A stretch of 39,345 nt of DNA from a virus. The translations under genes were made by a program, and so were the position numbers. Under the pieces are notes generated by a model. The model was not told the DNA's origin. It did no database searches and saw only the letters and a program-made list of their open reading frames with translations. The stretch is taken from the UHGV virus genome UHGV-1828728. The stretch is one strand, 5' to 3'. Shown here one piece after another: positions 1,750-28,183 of the stretch. Each line of letters opens with the position of its first letter. Position 1 is the first letter of the stretch.

Positions 1750-4480
<2,731 letters not shown>

Positions 4481-4547: not shown

Positions 4548-7500
4548 ATGAACAAGCTATCTATGGGGGTGTTTCGCTGTTCAAGTGTCAGCGAAATATT
4601 GAAATACATTAGTGCAATAACATCTCACCGAGCGCCGATTAGATACGGCGTGGAAAAGGTGGAAGGCAAAAGCTATGACCGACTACGCCGGGAGGCGAAT
4701 CAGAAGGCGATAGATTTGCTTAATTCGCTGGTGGACGGCGCGACACTGACAGATGAACAGCGCCAGATCCTGGCTGGGTACACCGGCGAAGGCGGCATTG
4801 GCGGGTCCGTCTCCGAATATTACACACCAAAGCCGATCGCTGAAGGTGTCTGGGAGATCATGAAGCTCTACGGCGCGGACGTAGGTAACACTCTGGAACC
4901 ATCGGCGGGAACCGGCGTTTTTAATGAGACAAAACCGGTTGGTACGGTGATGACCGCGACTGAGATCAGCAGTGTTTCCGGTCGTATAAACCAGCTGTTG
5001 CACCCGGAAGACAGCGTACAGATTTCTCCGTTCGAACAACTGGCTGTAAGCACGCCTAACGATTCATTCGACCATGTTGTGGGTAACGTTCCGTTCGGTG
5101 GTCGTGATAACACACGCAACATCGATAAGCCTTACGCAGAAGAAACGGACATGGGTTCTTACTTCATGCTCCGCATGCTGGACAAGATAAAGCCAGGCGG
5201 ATTCATGTGCGTGATTGTGCCGCCGTCCATTGTTTCAGGTTCAAACATGAAGCGGTTACGCCTGCGCCTATCACGGAAAGCTGAATTTCTTGGTGCCCAC
5301 CGCTTGCCTACCGGTACTTTTGACGCAAACGGGACCAGTACAGTTGTTGATGTGGTGCTGATGCGCAAACATCCGGCAGAGATGGCTGAGAAAATCCCCC
5401 TGGTGGATGAAAGCACTCTCGAATCGGCAAATGTGCTTTGGCCAACGTTTATTTCTGGCAAGTGGTTTGAAAAGGACGGCCGCCGGTTTGTTCATGGCAC
5501 CCAGGAAAAGGGCTTCCAGGGGCGTATTGAGGTTCGTGCCGACGGTCAGATTGATAACCAGGCTCTTAAAGCGAAGCTGATTCATCGTTTCGAAAGCCGT
5601 ATCGACTGGTCTTTGCTCGATATGGCTGAACCGTCACCGACCGCAGACGTTGTTGGTGAAGGGGAAATGCGCCTGATTAATGGCGTATGGCAAAAATATG
5701 CTGGTGGTCGCTGGATTGAAGCTGATGCCGGGAAGGAACTTAAGATCGATGCTGCCAGTTATGGCGCGGATAGCTGGGAGGCTCTTCAGCGTAACCTGAC
5801 TACAACAGAAGGCCGTCTCGGCATGACATTTACCCAGATGGCAAATGTCCGCGATAAGTACACCACATCAATCAGCGACGATATGGTGCAGCTGGTGGAC
5901 TGGATTAACAGCCAGCCTGAAAAATACCGTGAACGCTTGTATCGCGGGGCGATGATTGGCCGGATGTTAATTGAATATCAGGACATGAAGGCCGCCGGGC
6001 ATAGTGCTGAACAAATCGAACAGCAGCGCCTTTCTCTGGTATCCCGTTTGCAGGCAGAGATTGACCGTTTTGGTAACCCCGGTCGCGGTCCGATAGCGAA
6101 ATTGTCGGGGAGCGGTGCGCGCGCCTGGTTTGCTTTCCGTGGTGCAATTAAGCTGGATGGCACTATTTCTGACGAGCTGACAGGGAAGCTGGTTACGCAT
6201 GATTCCAGCGCAAGTTATGACTCCACCAGCTATCAGGACACCCTGCGTTATCTCTATAGCGATCTCACCCGCGATCCAATCCAGCTCGATGATTTCCGCC
6301 TTGCGTTTACCGGCGAACTGCCAGCCAGTGATGAAGAGTTGCTTAATTTATTGGCCAGCACCCCCAGCGGCGACATTAACGAGATAGTGGCTCCAAAACA
6401 GGAATTCCTCGCCACACTCCCCGACGGTCCAGTAAAGAACAACGTCCTTAATCAGCTGGCAGCTATCGAAGAGAAGCGCATCAAGACGCCAGCAGAGAAT
6501 ATCCGGTTTAAGCTCAATAGCCGTTGGTTCGACCGTTCCGTCATTCTGGAATTTTTGCAGGAAAACGGCTATCCGGATCTGCGCTATGTGCAGTCAGTGC
6601 AGCTGGAAGGCGACGAAATGGTTTCTGACACCTATCACGGTGGTGATGGTCTGTTCGTCGGGCACCGATACGGTGTCGTCCAGCGCAAGGATAAAGAAAC
6701 AGGTGAGATTCGCTACGAGTGGGACCGTAAATCAGGTGAAAACGCGACCGGGTTCCCGGCACAGCTGGAAAAGTATCTCAATGGTGCGCGTATCGGTGGC
6801 AAAGATAGCGCGACGGCGAACGGCTACCGCGAGCAGATGGCACTGCTTGAGGACCAGTTCAATAAGTGGATCAAGACGCACGATCGCTACGATGAGCTGG
6901 TTGCCAAATACAACGATGTGTTCAATAGCAATATCCCGTATGAACACTCTGGCGATCCGCTTGGGTTGAAGGGATTAAGCGGTAAGCGCCAGCCATTTGA
7001 TTACCAGAATAGCGAGGTGCGCCGACTGTCCGAAGATGGGCGCGGCATCCTGGGCTTCGGCACCGGGCTGGGTAAAACCACGACCGCGCTGGCGCTTGAG
7101 GCGTTCAACTATGAGAACGGTCGCTCCACCCGTACTGCGTATGTAGTGCCTAAATCAGTGCTGGAAAATTGGTATTACGAAGCAAAAGAATTCCTGAGTG
7201 AAGAGGCATTCAGTAACTACTTGTTCGTCGGTCTTGATGTGCTGATGGATGGCGATCAGATTCGCCAGGTGCCGGTGCTCAATGAGAACGGTAAACCTGT
7301 TCTTGGTACTGATGGCACTCCAGTTATGCGCGATGCTCTTAAGCTGGCAGATGAAGCCACTATCACGGCGCGGATGAACGCGATCCCGCACTCAAATTAC
7401 CGTGCAGTCGTGTTTACCAAAGAACAATACGCCCGCATTCCGCTACGTGATGACACCGTAGATGAGCATGCACAAGACATGCTTTATGACTTCGTTGCCG

Positions 7501-14323: not shown

Positions 14324-14511
14324 AGCGCCCCTACAAAAAAGAAAAGCCACCAGCGGCGGCTTAGCAATACAACTGAAGGTAGCGCCCGGTACTCAGACTG
14401 TGCCGTCCATGGAATATTTGAAAAGGGATCCATCCGTACCGGGCATGTGATGATTCTGACTGAAGTCACTTGTCAGTTGTCAATTATTTCAGATTAAAAA
14501 TAATATATTTA

Positions 14512-15072
14512 TTAGTGCATGCTGTTTGCCATCTCATAGGCGTCAGCCAGCAACTCCATCTCTGACTTGTTCAGCAAGGTGAATTCTTTCTTGCCTCCAA
14601 CCACACCATCGGCATGAACAGGGACCAGCCAGGGGTATTTTTCTCTTACTTCAGCCGGTGCTGCATGCTGGTGGTGCCATCTACAAAGTGGCAATTGCTT
14701 TTTGTGACAACCAGGCGCGGTACGACCGGAGATATGGTGCAGAGACACCTCTTCAGATATTACTCCATGCATATAGCAGGCAATGCAGGGGAGAGCGCCA
14801 AGAGCATTGGCTATGCGCCGCTCCTCCGCCGTCGGTGTTCGTCCCTTCAAGCCACGAGATTTTATTTTTACCGCGCTTTTCCGCGTTTTGCTGGCTGGTG
14901 GGCGCTCTTTCTGTTTAGCGATACGGCGGTCGATAGTATTCCGCATTTTCTGATATTGAGATTCTCGCCAGGCCGGATCAGCCAACTTCTCCCGTTGCCG
15001 AGCGATCGCTCGTTCTCTGGCTGCCTTCTGCCACTTACGGTGCTGTTCAATTTTTTGTTCGATTGTTTTCAT
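14512..15072 (-). CDS. ref: Ref (recombination enhancement function, HNH-type endonuclease)
   Basis: 186-aa product starting MKTIEQKIEQHRKWQ..., Cys/His-rich C-terminal half; matches P1 Ref from memory. The track ORF extends upstream to 15177 but Ref begins at the internal ATG. Confidence 0.85.
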   Translation of the reverse strand: MKTIEQKIEQHRKWQKAARERAIARQREKLADPAWRESQYQKMRNTIDRRIAKQKERPPASKTRKSAVKIKSRGLKGRTPTAEERRIANALGALPCIACYMHGVISEEVSLHHISGRTAPGCHKKQLPLCRWHHQHAAPAEVREKYPWLVPVHADGVVGGKKEFTLLNKSEMELLADAYEMANSMH

Positions 15073-15077
15073 ATGGC

Positions 15078-15103
15078 AAAAAAAAGGCGGCCTGATGGCC
15101 GCC
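15078..15103 (-). terminator. terminator-like hairpin in the ref leader (possible attenuator)
   Basis: On the minus strand, stem GGCGGCC/GGCCGCC with loop ATCA followed by T8, ending 5 nt before the ref ATG. Confidence 0.4.
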
Positions 15104-15163
15104 AATGATGTCAAGGAGTTAAGTAATGGCAACGTCTTCGTAGTTGACAAAAACTGCGGCTCA

Positions 15164-15187
15164 ATTATAGCAATCAATTAGAGCAAT
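15164..15187 (-). promoter_or_regulatory. ref promoter with overlapping C1 operator
   Basis: Minus strand ATTGCTCTAATTGATTGC TATAAT: operator core (15171-15187) immediately upstream of a perfect -10 TATAAT (15164-15169). Confidence 0.5.
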
Positions 15188-15247
15188 GGTAGAGATTTTG
15201 TTTATCGCGAATCACATTTTTTCACTTCAGTACCTGTGTGCTATACT

Positions 15248-15321
15248 CCTTCTTGATTGATTGGATGCGGAATACAAACCCGCTCTTTTGTGCAGCCTGG
15301 CTCCTTGCCAGGCTTTTTTTT
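15248..15321 (+). ncRNA. candidate small RNA (promoter plus intrinsic terminator, no ORF)
   Basis: Extended -10 TGcTATACT (15239-15247), about 45 nt containing GATTGATTGG, then hairpin AGCCTGGC-TCCTT-GCCAGGCT (15294-15314) and T8. No coding potential on + strand. Existence as an RNA is inference. Confidence 0.25.
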
Positions 15322-15631
15322 ATTTCATCATGGAAGCTGTTAATGCTTTGGACCTTGCTGAACTGATTGAGAGGGCTTTGTCAACGTGCCCCAAAAATTC
15401 GCCAAACTCAGACATCACTTTAGCAAAACCGCGCCGTGCTTCTTCCTCGGTGGCATTCATCACGAAATGTTCAGCACTACGCATACTTCTGACAGGGAAC
15501 GCAACGGATATTGAGTCAATATCAGGCATTCTATCGCTCAGCTTTACAGTGACAATGACGGCTGGCGACTGAATATTAGTGCTCACTGACAGCACTACAT
15601 ATTTTCCGTCGATGTTGAAATTCTTTCTCAT
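15320..15631 (-). CDS. cra: Cra-like protein (cre-associated)
   Basis: 103-aa ORF between cre and ref with ATG and GGTGA SD; C1 operator-like site just upstream. Name by synteny. Confidence 0.6.
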   Translation of the reverse strand: MRKNFNIDGKYVVLSVSTNIQSPAVIVTVKLSDRMPDIDSISVAFPVRSMRSAEHFVMNATEEEARRGFAKVMSEFGEFLGHVDKALSISSARSKALTASMMK

Positions 15632-15647
15632 ATGTCACCATAAATAT

Positions 15648-15664
15648 CAAAGAATTAGAGCAAT
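15648..15664 (-). promoter_or_regulatory. C1 operator-like site upstream of cra
   Basis: Core ATTGCTCTAAT (reverse complement of 15654-15664); 13/17 to consensus. Confidence 0.45.
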
Positions 15665-15681
15665 CATTTACGCGTTAATGG

Positions 15682-16713
15682 CTAATCGCCATCTTCCAGC
15701 AGGCGCACCATTGCCCCTGTTTCACTATCCAGGTTACGGATATAGTTCATGACAATATTTACGTTGGTCCAGCCACCAGCTTGCATGATCTCCGGTATTG
15801 AAACTCCGGCGCGGGCCATATCTCGCGCGGCTCCGACACGGGCACTGTGTCCAGACCAGGCCAGGTACCTCTGACCAGAGTCATCCTTAGCCCCGTAAAT
15901 CAATCGGTGAGTTGCTTCAAAAATCCCTTCCAGGGCGCGAGTTGATAGCTGGCTGGTGGATGATGGCGAGGCAACACCATTTTTTCTGACCCGGCAAAAC
16001 AAGTAGTTATTCGGATCATCAGCCACACCAGAGACGGAAATCCATCGCTCGACCAGTTTAGTTACCCCCAGGCTAAGTGCCTTCTCTACACCTGCGGTGC
16101 TAACCAGCGTTTTCGTTCTGCCAATATGGATTAACATTCTCCCACCGTCAGTACGTGAGATATCTTTAACCCTGATCCTGGCAATTTCGGCTATACGTAA
16201 CAGGGTGTTATAAGCAATCCCCAGAAATGCCAGATTCCGTATATCCTGGCAGCGATCGCTATTTCCCATGAGTGAACGAACCTGGTCGAAATCAGTGCGT
16301 TCGAACGCCAGCGCCTGTTTTGCACGCTCACCGGCATCAACGTTTTCTTTTCGGATCCGTCGCATGACCAGTGAAACAGCATTGCTGTCACTTGGTCGTG
16401 GCAGCCCGGACCGACGATGAAGCATATTTAGCTGGCCCAAATGTTGCTGGATAGTTTTCACTGCCAGACCGCGCGCCTGAAGATATAGAAGATAATCGCG
16501 AACATCTTCAGGTTCTGCGGGAAACCATTTCCGGTTATTCAACTTGCACCATGCCGCCCATGACCGGCAAACGGACAGAAGCATTTTCCAGGTATGCTCA
16601 GAAAACGCCTGGCGATCCCTGAACATGTCCATCAGGTTCTTGCGAACCTCATCACTCGTTGCATCGACCGGTAATGCAGGCAAATTTTGGTGTACGGTCA
16701 GTAAATTGGACAT
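15682..16713 (-). CDS. cre: Cre tyrosine recombinase
   Basis: 343-aa product beginning MSNLLTVHQNLPALPVDATSDEVRKNLMDMFRDRQAFSEHTWKMLLSVCRSWAAWCKLNNRKWFPAEPEDVRDYLLYLQARGLAVKTIQQHLGQLNMLHRRSGLPRPSDSNAVSLVMRRIRKENVDAGERAKQALAFERTDFDQVRSLM and ending NIVMNYIRNLDSETGAMVRLLEDGD; matches canonical Cre from memory apart from a few substitutions. Confidence 0.97.
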   Translation of the reverse strand: MSNLLTVHQNLPALPVDATSDEVRKNLMDMFRDRQAFSEHTWKMLLSVCRSWAAWCKLNNRKWFPAEPEDVRDYLLYLQARGLAVKTIQQHLGQLNMLHRRSGLPRPSDSNAVSLVMRRIRKENVDAGERAKQALAFERTDFDQVRSLMGNSDRCQDIRNLAFLGIAYNTLLRIAEIARIRVKDISRTDGGRMLIHIGRTKTLVSTAGVEKALSLGVTKLVERWISVSGVADDPNNYLFCRVRKNGVASPSSTSQLSTRALEGIFEATHRLIYGAKDDSGQRYLAWSGHSARVGAARDMARAGVSIPEIMQAGGWTNVNIVMNYIRNLDSETGAMVRLLEDGD

Positions 16714-16720
16714 TTAACAC

Positions 16721-16942
16721 TCAGATAATGGTTTTAAGTAAAGTGTACAGGATCGGCTCTGCCTTTACCTGTTTATGGTTCTCGTCATAGAAACGCCAGC
16801 GACCGCGCGTGCGTTCTATTTTCTCTTCACCGCGCGATAATGACAGTTGACAACTATCACGATCAAACCCTTTTGCCCGCCAGTAACCACGGTTTTTCTC
16901 AAGCTCAATATGAGTGGACACTTTAGCAGCTGAATATCCCAT
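16721..16942 (-). CDS. hypothetical 73-aa protein between loxP and cre
   Basis: ATG with GAGGTG SD at 5-nt spacing; stop 8 nt before the cre ATG; lies in what is normally treated as the cre promoter region. Confidence 0.45.
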   Translation of the reverse strand: MGYSAAKVSTHIELEKNRGYWRAKGFDRDSCQLSLSRGEEKIERTRGRWRFYDENHKQVKAEPILYTLLKTII

Positions 16943-17040
16943 TTTTCACCTCTGATTGATTGGTGGTGCTAAGTGCGCTACGCGAAATCTGGAGCACTAA
17001 CACTGCCAACATTTCGCAGATTTTACGTAGCGCAACCTTG

Positions 17041-17117
17041 ATCAAATGATCAAGTGATCACTATTTGACCTGATAAGGTATTGAACTGTATGGATTTACA
17101 GGTAAATTGATCATGTT
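17041..17117. promoter_or_regulatory. GATC (Dam site) cluster next to loxP
   Basis: GATC at 17041, 17049 and 17057 within 20 bp plus another at 17111; P1 cre transcription is described as Dam-methylation sensitive (from memory). Confidence 0.4.
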
Positions 17118-17131
17118 CAATAACCCTTAAG

Positions 17132-17165
17132 ATAACTTCGTATAATGTATGCTATACGAAGTTAT
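17132..17165. other. loxP: loxP recombination site
   Basis: Exact ATAACTTCGTATA-ATGTATGC-TATACGAAGTTAT (13-bp inverted repeats, 8-bp spacer). Confidence 0.97.
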
Positions 17166-17208
17166 TAGGTCCGAAGAGGAGTTTACGTCCAGTTGCGCAT
17201 AAAAATCA

Positions 17209-17225
17209 AGAATTATTAGAGCAAT
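17209..17225 (-). promoter_or_regulatory. C1 operator (immC)
   Basis: AGAATTATTAGAGCAAT, 15/17 to consensus in reverse orientation. Confidence 0.5.
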
Positions 17226-17285
17226 AAATTTTGAGAGAAAAATCCCACTCCACCAGCCAAAAACTGGATTGTTTTTCATAGTTGT

Positions 17286-17314
17286 TTGACAATTGCTCTA
17301 ATAAATTATAGTTT
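17286..17314 (+). promoter_or_regulatory. immC promoter with embedded C1 operator
   Basis: TTGACA (17286-17291) followed by ATTGCTCTAATAAATTA (17292-17308, 16/17 to consensus) overlapping a TATAGT/TAGTTT -10; reads toward coi-c1. Confidence 0.55.
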
Positions 17315-17546
17315 TGCCGCCGTTTCGTAATACGACTTTGGATTCACTATTTAATGTGTCTTCAGCGTTGTAGAGCGGCTCAGAAGGAAATGAGCAAACA
17401 GGGAAACCTTATACAACGGCATTACAGCTATGCATTGCTCATCTTACACACAGCGCAATGTTGTTAGATTACCCCAGCATGGATCATGGGTGAAACAGTA
17501 GGTCAGAGCTTCAGGCTCTGTGTTGTCAATACAGTGAGGCATAATT

Positions 17547-27170: not shown

Positions 27171-27431
27171 TTACCTCACCTCCAGTCTCCATACCGCCTG
27201 ACCAATCCGGCTGGCATGGGTATCTTTGGATACTGTTCCATCTTTAGCCAGCTCCATAAGAATTTTGCGCAAATCTGCCGACCGCCATTCTTCATCAGGA
27301 AATTCCTTCTCCATTGCCAACCGCAGATTCCAGGTTGCCATCCTGAATGGATATTCCCCGCCGAGAGCTTTATCTTGCAGGGCAGCCCGGGAACGCATCA
27401 CCTGCAAAACCTTCTCTTTTACATCCATCAT
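27171..27431 (-). CDS. hypothetical protein
   Basis: 86 aa; ATG overlaps the upstream gene stop (ATGA). Confidence 0.5.
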   Translation of the reverse strand: MMDVKEKVLQVMRSRAALQDKALGGEYPFRMATWNLRLAMEKEFPDEEWRSADLRKILMELAKDGTVSKDTHASRIGQAVWRLEVR

Positions 27432-28183
27432 TTCGCCTCCTGCGGCGGTTCCGGTAGCGGCATCCAGTGAGTTGCTTGCTCAATACCATTACCCGGCTTA
27501 ATCGTTGCATCTCCGCGCCGAAAGGTGCTTCCGGTATAGCGTGCGGAGCATATTAGCGGTTCAACCAGAGAGCTATCGAAATTCACCGAAATAAGCACGT
27601 TCTGGCCCTTTTCAGGCATTCGCTCACTACAGCTTATCCAACCATCCGGAGTTACCGGATAGTTGACAGCCAGTCTGCGCAAAACAGCCTTAACAGCCTC
27701 AATACGGTCATCATCAACTTTTTCTACAATATTGGAATTTAAATACTTCGAAGCCTTGCTATGCCAATCGCTGGTTTTAGGGTCTTGTCCATCCATCAAA
27801 CGCCAAGCTTCAGCGATTAACTCATAGCCAGTAACAGTGGCTTCCTGCGCATCACCAATCAGTTGTGTGATCTCTCTTTCAAGCATGCTTAGAGCGTTAG
27901 GCATTGGTTTTTCTTCCGGTACTACTGGAACGGGGGGAGCGGCGTAGACCTCAATAATTCCATTATCAATAGGCCATTCTCCATCCTTGAGGTAGTCACT
28001 TGTGCCGTCAACTTGCTGTTCTGCAATGTGGAATGCACCTATTGGTTTTGCTTCCAACGATGCCAGTGCAATCCGTGCCAGTTCTTCCGCTTCTTCTGCT
28101 GGCAGTACAACGTTGCTACCAGGTCCGTATGTTTCGCGCCACTGCTTGATTGTCAGCAGTCGCCCTTTGGTAATAGTGATCAT
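27428..28183 (-). CDS. hypothetical protein with DUF551-like C-terminal domain
   Basis: 251 aa; C-terminal WISCSERMPEKGQNVLI...ATHWMPLPEPP resembles the phage-associated DUF551 pattern (from memory). Confidence 0.6.
   Translation of the reverse strand: MITITKGRLLTIKQWRETYGPGSNVVLPAEEAEELARIALASLEAKPIGAFHIAEQQVDGTSDYLKDGEWPIDNGIIEVYAAPPVPVVPEEKPMPNALSMLEREITQLIGDAQEATVTGYELIAEAWRLMDGQDPKTSDWHSKASKYLNSNIVEKVDDDRIEAVKAVLRRLAVNYPVTPDGWISCSERMPEKGQNVLISVNFDSSLVEPLICSARYTGSTFRRGDATIKPGNGIEQATHWMPLPEPPQEAK

Follow-up and report, generated by a model that had tools for sequence, protein, structure and literature searches.

A candidate gene for a trans-acting small RNA in the c8-ref spacer of P1-type phage-plasmids

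The c8-ref spacer and its genes

The virus genome UHGV-1828728, treated here as one stretch of 39,345 nucleotides (the window), is that of a P1-type phage-plasmid (Punavirus), with 95-98% identity to P1, P7, SJ46, and RCS47 over positions 14400-17400; the + strand of the window corresponds to the minus strand of P1. The element under study lies in the spacer between c8 and ref, where the + strand carries a compact unit, predicted to span 15255-15321 (P1 complement(1828..1894)), that is proposed to encode a small RNA (sRNA) with its own promoter and terminator and with targets among the genes of the phage itself. According to the P1 GenBank record, the gene order along the - strand of the window is cra, cre, c8, ref, and the genes and annotated signals around the unit are as follows (aa, amino acids).

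16721-16942, - strand: cra (73 aa)
15682-16713, - strand: cre
15320-15631, - strand: c8 (103 aa), convergent with the sRNA gene
15171-15187, - strand: C1 operator Oref with the divergent P2ref promoter (P1 record 1962-1978, mapped to the window)
15086-15103, - strand: intrinsic terminator just before the ref ATG (GGCGGCC-ATCA-GGCCGCC followed by T8), not part of the sRNA gene
14512-15074, - strand: ref

A preliminary description of this DNA had placed the unit in a "ref-cra" interval, which proved to be a misnomer: in the P1 record the 103-aa gene is c8 and Cra is the 73-aa gene, and the interval in question (the region of 15239-15321) is P1 complement(1828..1910), within the c8-ref spacer. 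The record holds no annotation in the sRNA interval, with P2ref, Oref, and P1ref all annotated further downstream. Oref lies 32 bp upstream of the -35 region of the sRNA promoter and does not overlap that promoter.

Anatomy of the candidate gene

The unit can be divided into the following elements, all on the + strand (nt, nucleotides).

15219-15224, + strand: weak -35-like hexamer TTTTCA (promoter scan)
15237-15247, + strand: extended -10 TGTGcTATACT (TGTGCTATACT), containing TGcTATACT at 15239-15247
15248-15254, + strand: spacer of 7 pyrimidines (CCTTCTT) separating the -10 from the predicted start G15255
15255-15264, + strand: seed GAUUGAUUGG at the predicted 5' end of the RNA, reading GATTGATTGG in the lineage comparison
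15263-15286, + strand: predicted stem-loop 1 (SL1), with the core GCGG/CCGC at 15267-70/15280-83 and a helix base that pairs seed nt 9-10
15287-15293, + strand: linker, UUUGUGC and U-rich in P1, with GUGC conserved (folds and alignment)
15294-15321, + strand: intrinsic terminator, composed of an 8-bp stem AGCCTGGC/GCCAGGCT (15294-15314), the 5-nt loop TCCTT, and a U7-8 tail

On direct inspection of the window, every sequence feature listed in the preliminary description was found in place, its hairpin included, except that the T run following the 8-bp stem is T7 and reaches T8 only if the closing A-T pair is counted. The promoter scan returned TTTTCA-17-TATACT with an upstream TG (9/12), and the stretch TGATTGATTGG occupies 15254-15264; from standard sigma-70 spacing and purine preference, G15255 is the most likely transcription start. 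The terminator T run overlaps the c8 stop codon, and hence the c8 coding sequence, by 2 nt. The RNA of 15255-15321 is predicted to fold at -23.2 kcal/mol (z = -3.4) with nt 1-8 free, followed by SL1, the U-rich linker, stem-loop 2, and the U tail, and seed positions 1-7/8 are unpaired in all predicted folds.

The unit contains no credible open reading frame (ORF): those on the + strand at 15238, 15257, and 15261 have no Shine-Dalgarno sequence (SD) and all cross the terminator, and none in the unit is conserved, the ATG at 15265 being missing from Cronobacter phage JK004. The extended -10, the terminator, and the lineage conservation described below thus support the idea of a promoter-to-terminator unit of ~70 nt that is free of ORFs. 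Promoter-like and terminator-like matches are not by themselves above chance in the 3-kb stretch (7 vs 4.7 and 5 vs 2.9 expected, respectively); the significance of the unit derives instead from its motif statistics and conservation.

Conservation of the unit

Within the P1 clade, 85 loci with c8 were fetched (85-100% identical in the c8-ref spacer); all 85 match the spacer, and the unit is carried by every locus that reaches far enough. The -10 block, the seed, and both stems are near-invariant, and variation falls in the loops and the spacer. The only seed variant is G10A, in loci L040 and L029. In two loci, L074 and L041, unrelated DNA is joined just upstream of CCTGTGTGCTATACT, with the -10 kept and the -35 lost; the two breakpoints are independent and a few nt apart, at the equivalent of window ~15229-15233, and the DNA joined in L074 ends in what we take to be the 38-bp terminal inverted repeat of a Tn21-type element (GGGGTCGTCTCAGAAAACGGAAAATAAAGCACGCTAAG). 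The clade is too uniform to decide between a + strand seed and a - strand relic or decoy.

More informative are four diverged lineages, namely Cronobacter phage JK004 (76% nucleotide identity to P1 over the pmgS start region), Salmonella phage-plasmids, and two IMG/VR contigs, which together with P1 make five. The unit stands downstream of a c8 homologue in JK004, L091, L092/L093 (Salmonella phage-plasmid pCFSAN058588, hereafter pCFSAN), and L216, the last of these lineages having come from pattern scans of viral and metagenome collections whose other matches were mostly due to chance. The sRNA strand of the diverged lineages reads TGTGATATACT, 7 nt, GATTGATTGG, a hairpin, GTGC, AGCCCGGC-GAAA-GCTGGGCT, and a U-rich tail. 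TGTGnTATACT is identical across all five lineages, and the distance from -10 to seed is 7 nt in every one of them, even as the intervening sequences differ (CCTTCTT, CATTCGC, CGTTCGC, CATCCGC); no conservation of the -35 beyond the P1 clade emerged from the comparison.

Downstream of the seed, the RNA is conserved in form. Only its first 10-12 nt are invariant, the remaining body being replaced between lineages: SL1 occurs as three unrelated sequences (P1; JK004/L091; pCFSAN/L216), each of which folds as a hairpin with seed nt 8-10 paired at the helix base. A MAFFT/RNAalifold consensus recovered the terminator alone, as SL1 cannot be aligned between lineages and was judged from per-lineage folds. 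The terminator stem follows the pattern AGCC(Y)GGC/GC(Y)(R)GGCT. All of its base pairs (100%) can form in each of 12 distinct sequences, among which one compensatory change (U-A to C-G) and one change from G-C to G-U occur.

Several of these features distinguish the two strands. G-U substitutions in the SL1 of L023 and L185 are valid only on the + strand, whose fold is better than that of the - strand by 1.8-6.5 kcal/mol in JK004, L091, L092, L023, and L185. The hairpin is followed by a U-rich tail on the + strand in all lineages, whereas no U tract follows it on the - strand in any lineage, where GCACAAAAGAG, GCACACAUGG, or GCACUAUGG is found instead. JK004-type phages have no ref beside the unit and have not kept the AAGGAG of the other strand. 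The conserved -10, fixed spacing, and seed, along with a tail and G-U pairs that make sense on the + strand only, therefore argue for a + strand promoter-to-terminator gene, as opposed to a 3' structure of c8 or a relic of a ribosome-binding site (RBS).

In the JK004-type lineages (L090, which is JK004 at + ~395-430; L214, which is pCFSAN at ~27428-27455; L216; and L091), an inverted repeat, GCGAATGA-N10-TCATTCGC, brackets the -10. The repeat is not present in P1 and shows compensatory differences between lineages, such as CGGATG/CATCCG in L216. Its role may be that of an operator acting on the sRNA promoter or, alternatively, that of a hairpin in the 5' untranslated region (UTR) of the next - strand gene.

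The motif and its predicted targets

The complement of the seed recurs in the window. Four exact copies of CCAATCAATC are present, all on the - strand (15255-64, which is antisense to the sRNA unit, 16954-63, 31574-83, and 33469-78), against 0.17 expected as the shuffle mean, and none of 100 shuffles reached four. Likeness among the four places ends at 10-11 nt, and the sites are therefore not copies of a longer repeat. Among the repeated 10-mers of the window, only C1-operator and Chi-containing words outnumber CCAATCAATC; the Chi-containing words (GCTGGTGG; e.g., at 5698, 14665, and 32189) are second only to C1-operator cores in over-representation. Whole P1 holds five copies of the motif, four of which are on the strand of the mRNA; when the copy in the unit itself is set aside, three of the remaining four fall within -25..+30 of a start codon. 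The fifth copy (L088 29780-29789, - strand; P1 isolate OP279344.1) is antisense inside dbn, downstream of the late gene 5 operon, with no start codon near.

With all copies on one strand, the complementarity of the sRNA to these sites is equivalent to the - strand of the spacer holding another copy of the site, and the spacer copy is indeed followed by AAGGAG, as genuine target sites are followed by an SD. The preliminary description had proposed pairing with CCAAUCAAUCA sites 5' of two SDs, those of cra and of a 28-aa ORF; both were confirmed as sites, and a fourth copy, in codons 7-10 of pmgS, had been missed. The predicted targets in the window are as follows.

16954-16963, - strand: target 1, CCAAUCAAUC at -22..-13 relative to cra, with which the cre operon begins
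31574-31583, - strand: target 2, the motif at -25..-16 of a 28-aa hydrophobic ORF
31472-31558, - strand: the 28-aa ORF itself (MNTAFKIIMAAIYFWLFSITFGGIVAHG), unannotated, a single hydrophobic helix, between the C1 operator OpmgT (Op88) and pmgT
33469-33478, - strand: target 3, the motif at +21..+30 (codons 7-10) of pmgS (32236-33498)

The cra site is unchanged in 83 of 84 loci, and the sole exception is a C-to-U change that still permits a G-U pair. At two of the 84 loci, on related contigs, the cra start codon (16940-16942) is CTG rather than ATG, with the upstream motif and SD intact.

The 28-aa ORF, the stop codon of which overlaps the pmgT SD, is referred to here as the leader ORF. It is present in JK004 (gene_94), pCFSAN, L341, and L342, always after a hairpin, the motif, and an SD, and is also kept in phi456 and 673R5, where homology to the window stops at the pmgT start; no match to it was found in PHROG or Pfam. 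The leader site gives the strongest duplex in P1, with pairing of ~15 bp at -22.4 kcal/mol. When 15,722 windows were ranked by duplex energy with the sRNA's own antisense excluded (mean -9.7, standard deviation 2.7), the leader (-22.5) and cra (-22.0) came out as the two best.

Published work on P1vir bears on these genes in two ways. During infection, pmgS is over-induced in a Delta-hfq host, which is weakly suggestive of, and compatible with, an Hfq-dependent repressor. Moreover, plaque formation by P1vir requires none of the genes cra, cre, c8, ref, pmgS, and pmgT, as would fit a fine-tuning or lysogeny-related role.

Conservation of the target sites and covariation with the seed

The 10-mer, or a form of it that still allows a G-U pair (UCAAUCAAUC), is kept at orthologous sites in JK004, L091/L342, pCFSAN, and L341, and the manner of its retention differs instructively from site to site. 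In the cre operon, the motif stays at the first RBS in three lineages despite a different first cistron in each (Cra in P1, a 356-aa product in JK004, a 68-aa product in pCFSAN). In pmgS, the codons CAA UCA AUC are the same in P1, JK004, pCFSAN, L341, and L342, with differing flanking codons and amino acids. At the leader ORF, the motif immediately precedes the SD and follows a C1 operator and a hairpin, the latter differing in sequence (JK004, L342, pCFSAN, L341), with the first C of the motif being replaced by U in pCFSAN and L341, where a G-U pair can still form. Additional sites are lineage-specific: pCFSAN has one at the RBS of a 50-aa ORF whose C-terminus is hydrophobic, and in L091 (5155-5164; also in L147), CCAATCAATC abuts the ATG of a Ref homologue (MELTEQQIARRRQRA...), after a terminator with T8, such that ref itself appears to be a target in the L091 lineage. 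Three or four predicted targets per genome are thereby kept in three lineages.

The nucleotide bordering the seed provides a further comparison. Position 11 of the RNA is C in JK004/L091, where G stands 5' of the motif at 7/7 sites, and U in pCFSAN/L093/L216, where A stands there at 7/7 sites. P1 is the exception, as its position 11 is A and pairs only at the leader site (1/3). Such concerted change at three or four unlinked sites and in the regulator points to RNA-RNA pairing and is hard to explain by a protein-binding motif. The seed-target pairing put forward in the preliminary description is thus supported both by the retention of sites at orthologous initiation regions and by the covariation at position 11.

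Weighing of the interpretations

The interpretation preferred here, to which a probability of roughly 0.7 is given, is that 15255-15321 (+) is an independent gene for a trans-acting noncoding RNA of ~60-67 nt, with its own promoter and terminator and three targets. It is founded on the anatomy of the unit, its conservation, the co-conservation of seed and targets, and their covariation, all of which were observed in the sequence and by comparison; from these we infer that the RNA is made and propose its exact ends, the sign of its regulation, and a possible requirement for Hfq or ProQ.

A number of points weigh against this interpretation. The promoter and terminator are consensus matches only, and in the literature searched there is no transcription start site, Northern blot, or strand-specific coverage for the interval, the P1vir RNA-seq papers giving annotated genes only. 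Plain duplex energy is unspecific: several unrelated sites score near the proposed targets, and pmgS of P1 falls outside the top 14. In P1, the mismatch at position 11 (A) leaves two of the three targets with pairing over 10 bp only (-12 to -15 kcal/mol), and the pmgS site at +21..+30 is beyond the usual five-codon window for direct blocking of the ribosome. The L040/L029 allele combines the seed change G10A with loss of the extended -10 TG, and no compensating change is seen at cra. Each covarying pair of the terminator reflects a single evolutionary event. Finally, one wobble of the JK004 inverted repeat around the -10 fits the opposite strand, and it is possible, given that repeat in JK004-type lineages, that the DNA of the unit has additional or different functions.

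Among the rival explanations, the one that survives best, unlikely as it is, holds that the + strand RNA acts mainly in cis, with its trans sites minor, whether as an antisense RNA, directed at cre-c8 read-through or, in JK004-type phages, at the 5' UTR of the gene that follows, or through transcriptional interference with the c8 or ref promoters. In its favour, the sRNA gene runs toward c8 and shares 2 nt with the c8 stop codon; a perfect complement of all 67 nt is expected in c8 transcripts, the duplex with the first 20 nt of the RNA being worth -34 kcal/mol; and the JK004-type unit lies ~45 nt upstream of the next gene's ATG. Such arrangements, however, account neither for the presence of a conserved 10-mer in three or four distant initiation regions together with the covariation of position 11, nor for the invariance of just the first 10-12 nt while the body is replaced. 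Roles in cis and in trans are not mutually exclusive.

It is rather improbable that the RNA is the antitoxin of a dispersed arrangement resembling type I toxin-antitoxin systems and serves primarily to silence short hydrophobic products, those of the 28-aa ORF and, in the Salmonella phage-plasmid, of the 50-aa ORF. The product of the former is a single hydrophobic helix, its duplex is the strongest in P1, homologous small ORFs follow the motif in all lineages, and the extra pCFSAN target has a hydrophobic C-terminus. Set against this, 16 kb separate the RNA gene from the ORF, where the gene of a type I antitoxin would normally adjoin or overlap that of its toxin; the 28-aa ORF is translationally coupled to pmgT and leader-like; and cra/cre and pmgS are equally conserved as targets.

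There is little likelihood that the + strand yields no RNA at all and that both the hairpin and the copy of CCAAUCAAUC function in cis within a - strand cre-c8(-ref) transcript, e.g., a 3' stabilizing hairpin and a decoy or relic RBS. The - strand of the window folds as well as the + strand (-23.4 vs -23.2), the spacer carries the motif and then AAGGAG in the manner of true sites and their SD, and the neighbouring genes are all on the - strand; yet this AAGGAG has no start codon after it and is not kept in JK004-type lineages, the U tract that follows the hairpin on the + strand of all lineages is absent from the - strand, the G-U pairs of the stem become A.C mismatches on the - strand, and the invariance of TGTGnTATACT at a fixed 7-nt distance from the motif is left unexplained. 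The alternative offered in the preliminary description, in which the hairpin is simply a structural element of the minus-strand transcript, is disfavoured by the same lack of a - strand U tract and the same G-U to A.C mismatches. Two related candidates were likewise rejected, namely the - strand AAGGAG as the RBS of a hidden small ORF (no start codon, no conservation in JK004) and the hairpin as an intrinsic terminator of c8 on the - strand (T run on the + strand only).

Just as little credit is given to the proposal that CCAAUCAAUC is a site for a protein (a translational repressor of the phage or a regulator that binds DNA) or for a host RNA (rRNA), with the spacer copy one more site and its promoter and terminator likeness incidental: the motif is short, strictly conserved, and tied to RBSs, as a translational operator would be, and a hairpin lies just upstream of several targets, but the nucleotide preceding the motif shifts across all targets of a lineage in step with RNA position 11, which a fixed protein site would not do, the spacer copy coincides exactly with the predicted +1 of a conserved promoter-terminator unit, and the site inside pmgS and the variable promoter distance speak against a DNA operator.

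Proposed mechanism

If the trans-acting sRNA is accepted as a working model, its action may be envisaged as follows. The extended -10 TGTGnTATACT would drive transcription without a -35, starting at G15255 and ending in the U tail over the c8 stop codon. The promoter is proposed to be constitutive; Oref does not encroach on it. The 5' seed would nucleate on CCAAUCAAUC beside the SD of cra and of the leader ORF, or early in the coding region in the case of pmgS, and by analogy with enterobacterial sRNAs having a 5' seed, the likely outcome would be repression by reduced translation initiation and/or destabilization of the mRNA. The sRNA would accordingly add a post-transcriptional layer to the C1 repression of the pmgRS and pmgT operons and to the control of the cre operon.

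The cre operon may be connected to this regulator at both of its ends. No - strand terminator precedes 15103-15086, which is likely where c8 read-through transcripts end, and cre-c8 read-through RNA should therefore hold a perfect complement of the sRNA. Such RNA could titrate the sRNA or be cleaved and degraded together with it, and the operon would thus carry a target site at its 5' end and a complement at its 3' end. A fuller scheme, offered tentatively and thought more doubtful than not, is that a constitutive sRNA co-silences the first cistron of the cre operon (and hence Cre and C8), pmgRS, and pmgT, with the cre-c8 transcript serving as a sponge, so as to form a self-contained RNA feedback circuit that switches between maintenance as a plasmid-prophage and lytic or establishment functions.

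With respect to possible partner proteins, a U tail is present in all lineages, and the linker of P1 (UCUUUUGUG), unlike that of JK004 (GCCAUGUGUG), is rich in U. A Salmonella phage-plasmid with a diverged copy of the sRNA also encodes an RNA-binding protein of the ProQ/FinO family (L215 41602-42132; NZ_CP077703.1 84602-85132).

Relation to known RNAs and neighbouring signals

None of the Rfam 15 covariance models, C4 included, matched the window at gathering thresholds; the best sub-threshold score was that of SorX (22.6 bits vs a gathering threshold of 46.6), and nothing meaningful appeared at E<=10. No description of a c8-ref sRNA was found in the literature on P1 transcriptomes, phage-plasmid sRNAs, the motif, or pmgS/pmgT, coverage of the older P1 papers being incomplete, and no RNA gene is annotated at the unit in RefSeq E. 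coli genomes. The unit is nevertheless widespread, occurring in 697 PLSDB plasmids from Escherichia, Salmonella, Klebsiella, Shigella, and Cronobacter, as well as in 615 of 5,426 complete E. coli genomes (~11%).

Comparison with established regulators supports its placement as a putative new RNA family within a known kind, that of trans-acting sRNAs with a 5' seed. Enterobacterial representatives, such as RybB, OmrA/B, and MicC, combine a 5'-terminal seed with an intrinsic terminator. Like them, the candidate falls within 60-90 nt, begins with a conserved seed predicted to be single-stranded, varies in its body, ends in a terminator hairpin followed by a U tail, and is predicted to pair with several mRNAs at or near the start codon; it differs in being encoded by a phage-plasmid, in having predicted targets that are all phage genes, and in showing no sequence or covariance-model similarity to them above noise. 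Prophage sRNAs (DicF, IpeX, and those of enterohaemorrhagic E. coli prophages) are likewise phage-borne base-pairing RNAs with their own transcription units, but these mostly target host mRNAs or sRNAs, whereas the conserved predicted targets of the c8-ref sRNA, among the phage sequences examined, are phage cre, pmgS, and the pmgT leader.

Within P1 itself, the nearest parallel is c4, reportedly the antisense RNA of the P1/P7 immI operon. It is cut from the same transcript as its target (icd-ant), acts through two internal loop pairings, and has a single target operon. Both are small noncoding RNAs of the same phage with short complementarity at an RBS, and both would keep phage functions silent; the c8-ref sRNA differs from c4 in its own promoter and terminator, its 5'-terminal seed, its at least three dispersed predicted targets, and its lack of a match to the C4 family. 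A resemblance also exists to the trans-encoded type I antitoxin RNA systems IstR-1/tisB and OhsC/shoB, in which a short RNA pairs over 10-20 nt upstream of or at the RBS of a very small hydrophobic ORF, with the differences that the c8-ref sRNA gene is not beside the small ORF and has further, non-peptide predicted targets.

The sRNA terminator should also be distinguished from the - strand terminator at 15086-15103. The latter presumably corresponds to the published ref attenuator, ref being reportedly known, to judge from the title of one paper, for attenuator control. It occupies the same intergenic region and is likewise a GC hairpin followed by T8, but it stands on the - strand before the ref ATG, whereas the sRNA hairpin would terminate + strand transcription and is situated on the upstream side of the ref promoters. 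The ref ATG itself has no SD, and an in-frame, TTG-started extension of ref from 15177 runs through this terminator. On the other side of the unit, a C1-operator-like sequence, ATTGCTCTAATTCTTTG, which shares the Oref core and has no annotation in the P1 record, lies at 15653-15669 (-), just upstream of the c8 start at 15631, and the equivalent place in JK004 holds a near-consensus C1 operator, ATTGCTCTAATAATTTA. The presence of operator-like sites in both suggests that c8 may be under C1 control.

Significance

P1 is among the best-studied phages and the source of Cre-lox, and its reference annotation is blank at the sRNA interval. On the sequence and comparative evidence assembled here, P1-type phage-plasmids probably possess a second RNA regulator besides c4. 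If this proves true, the cre operon and two C1-controlled early operons would have a new regulator with a defined seed and defined targets, and a new RNA family would become available for the annotation of phage-plasmids, many of which carry resistance genes. The unit and its sites also offer a compact natural case of co-evolution between an sRNA and its regulon, in which the seed and the sites are kept, the body is replaced, and position 11 covaries with the targets.

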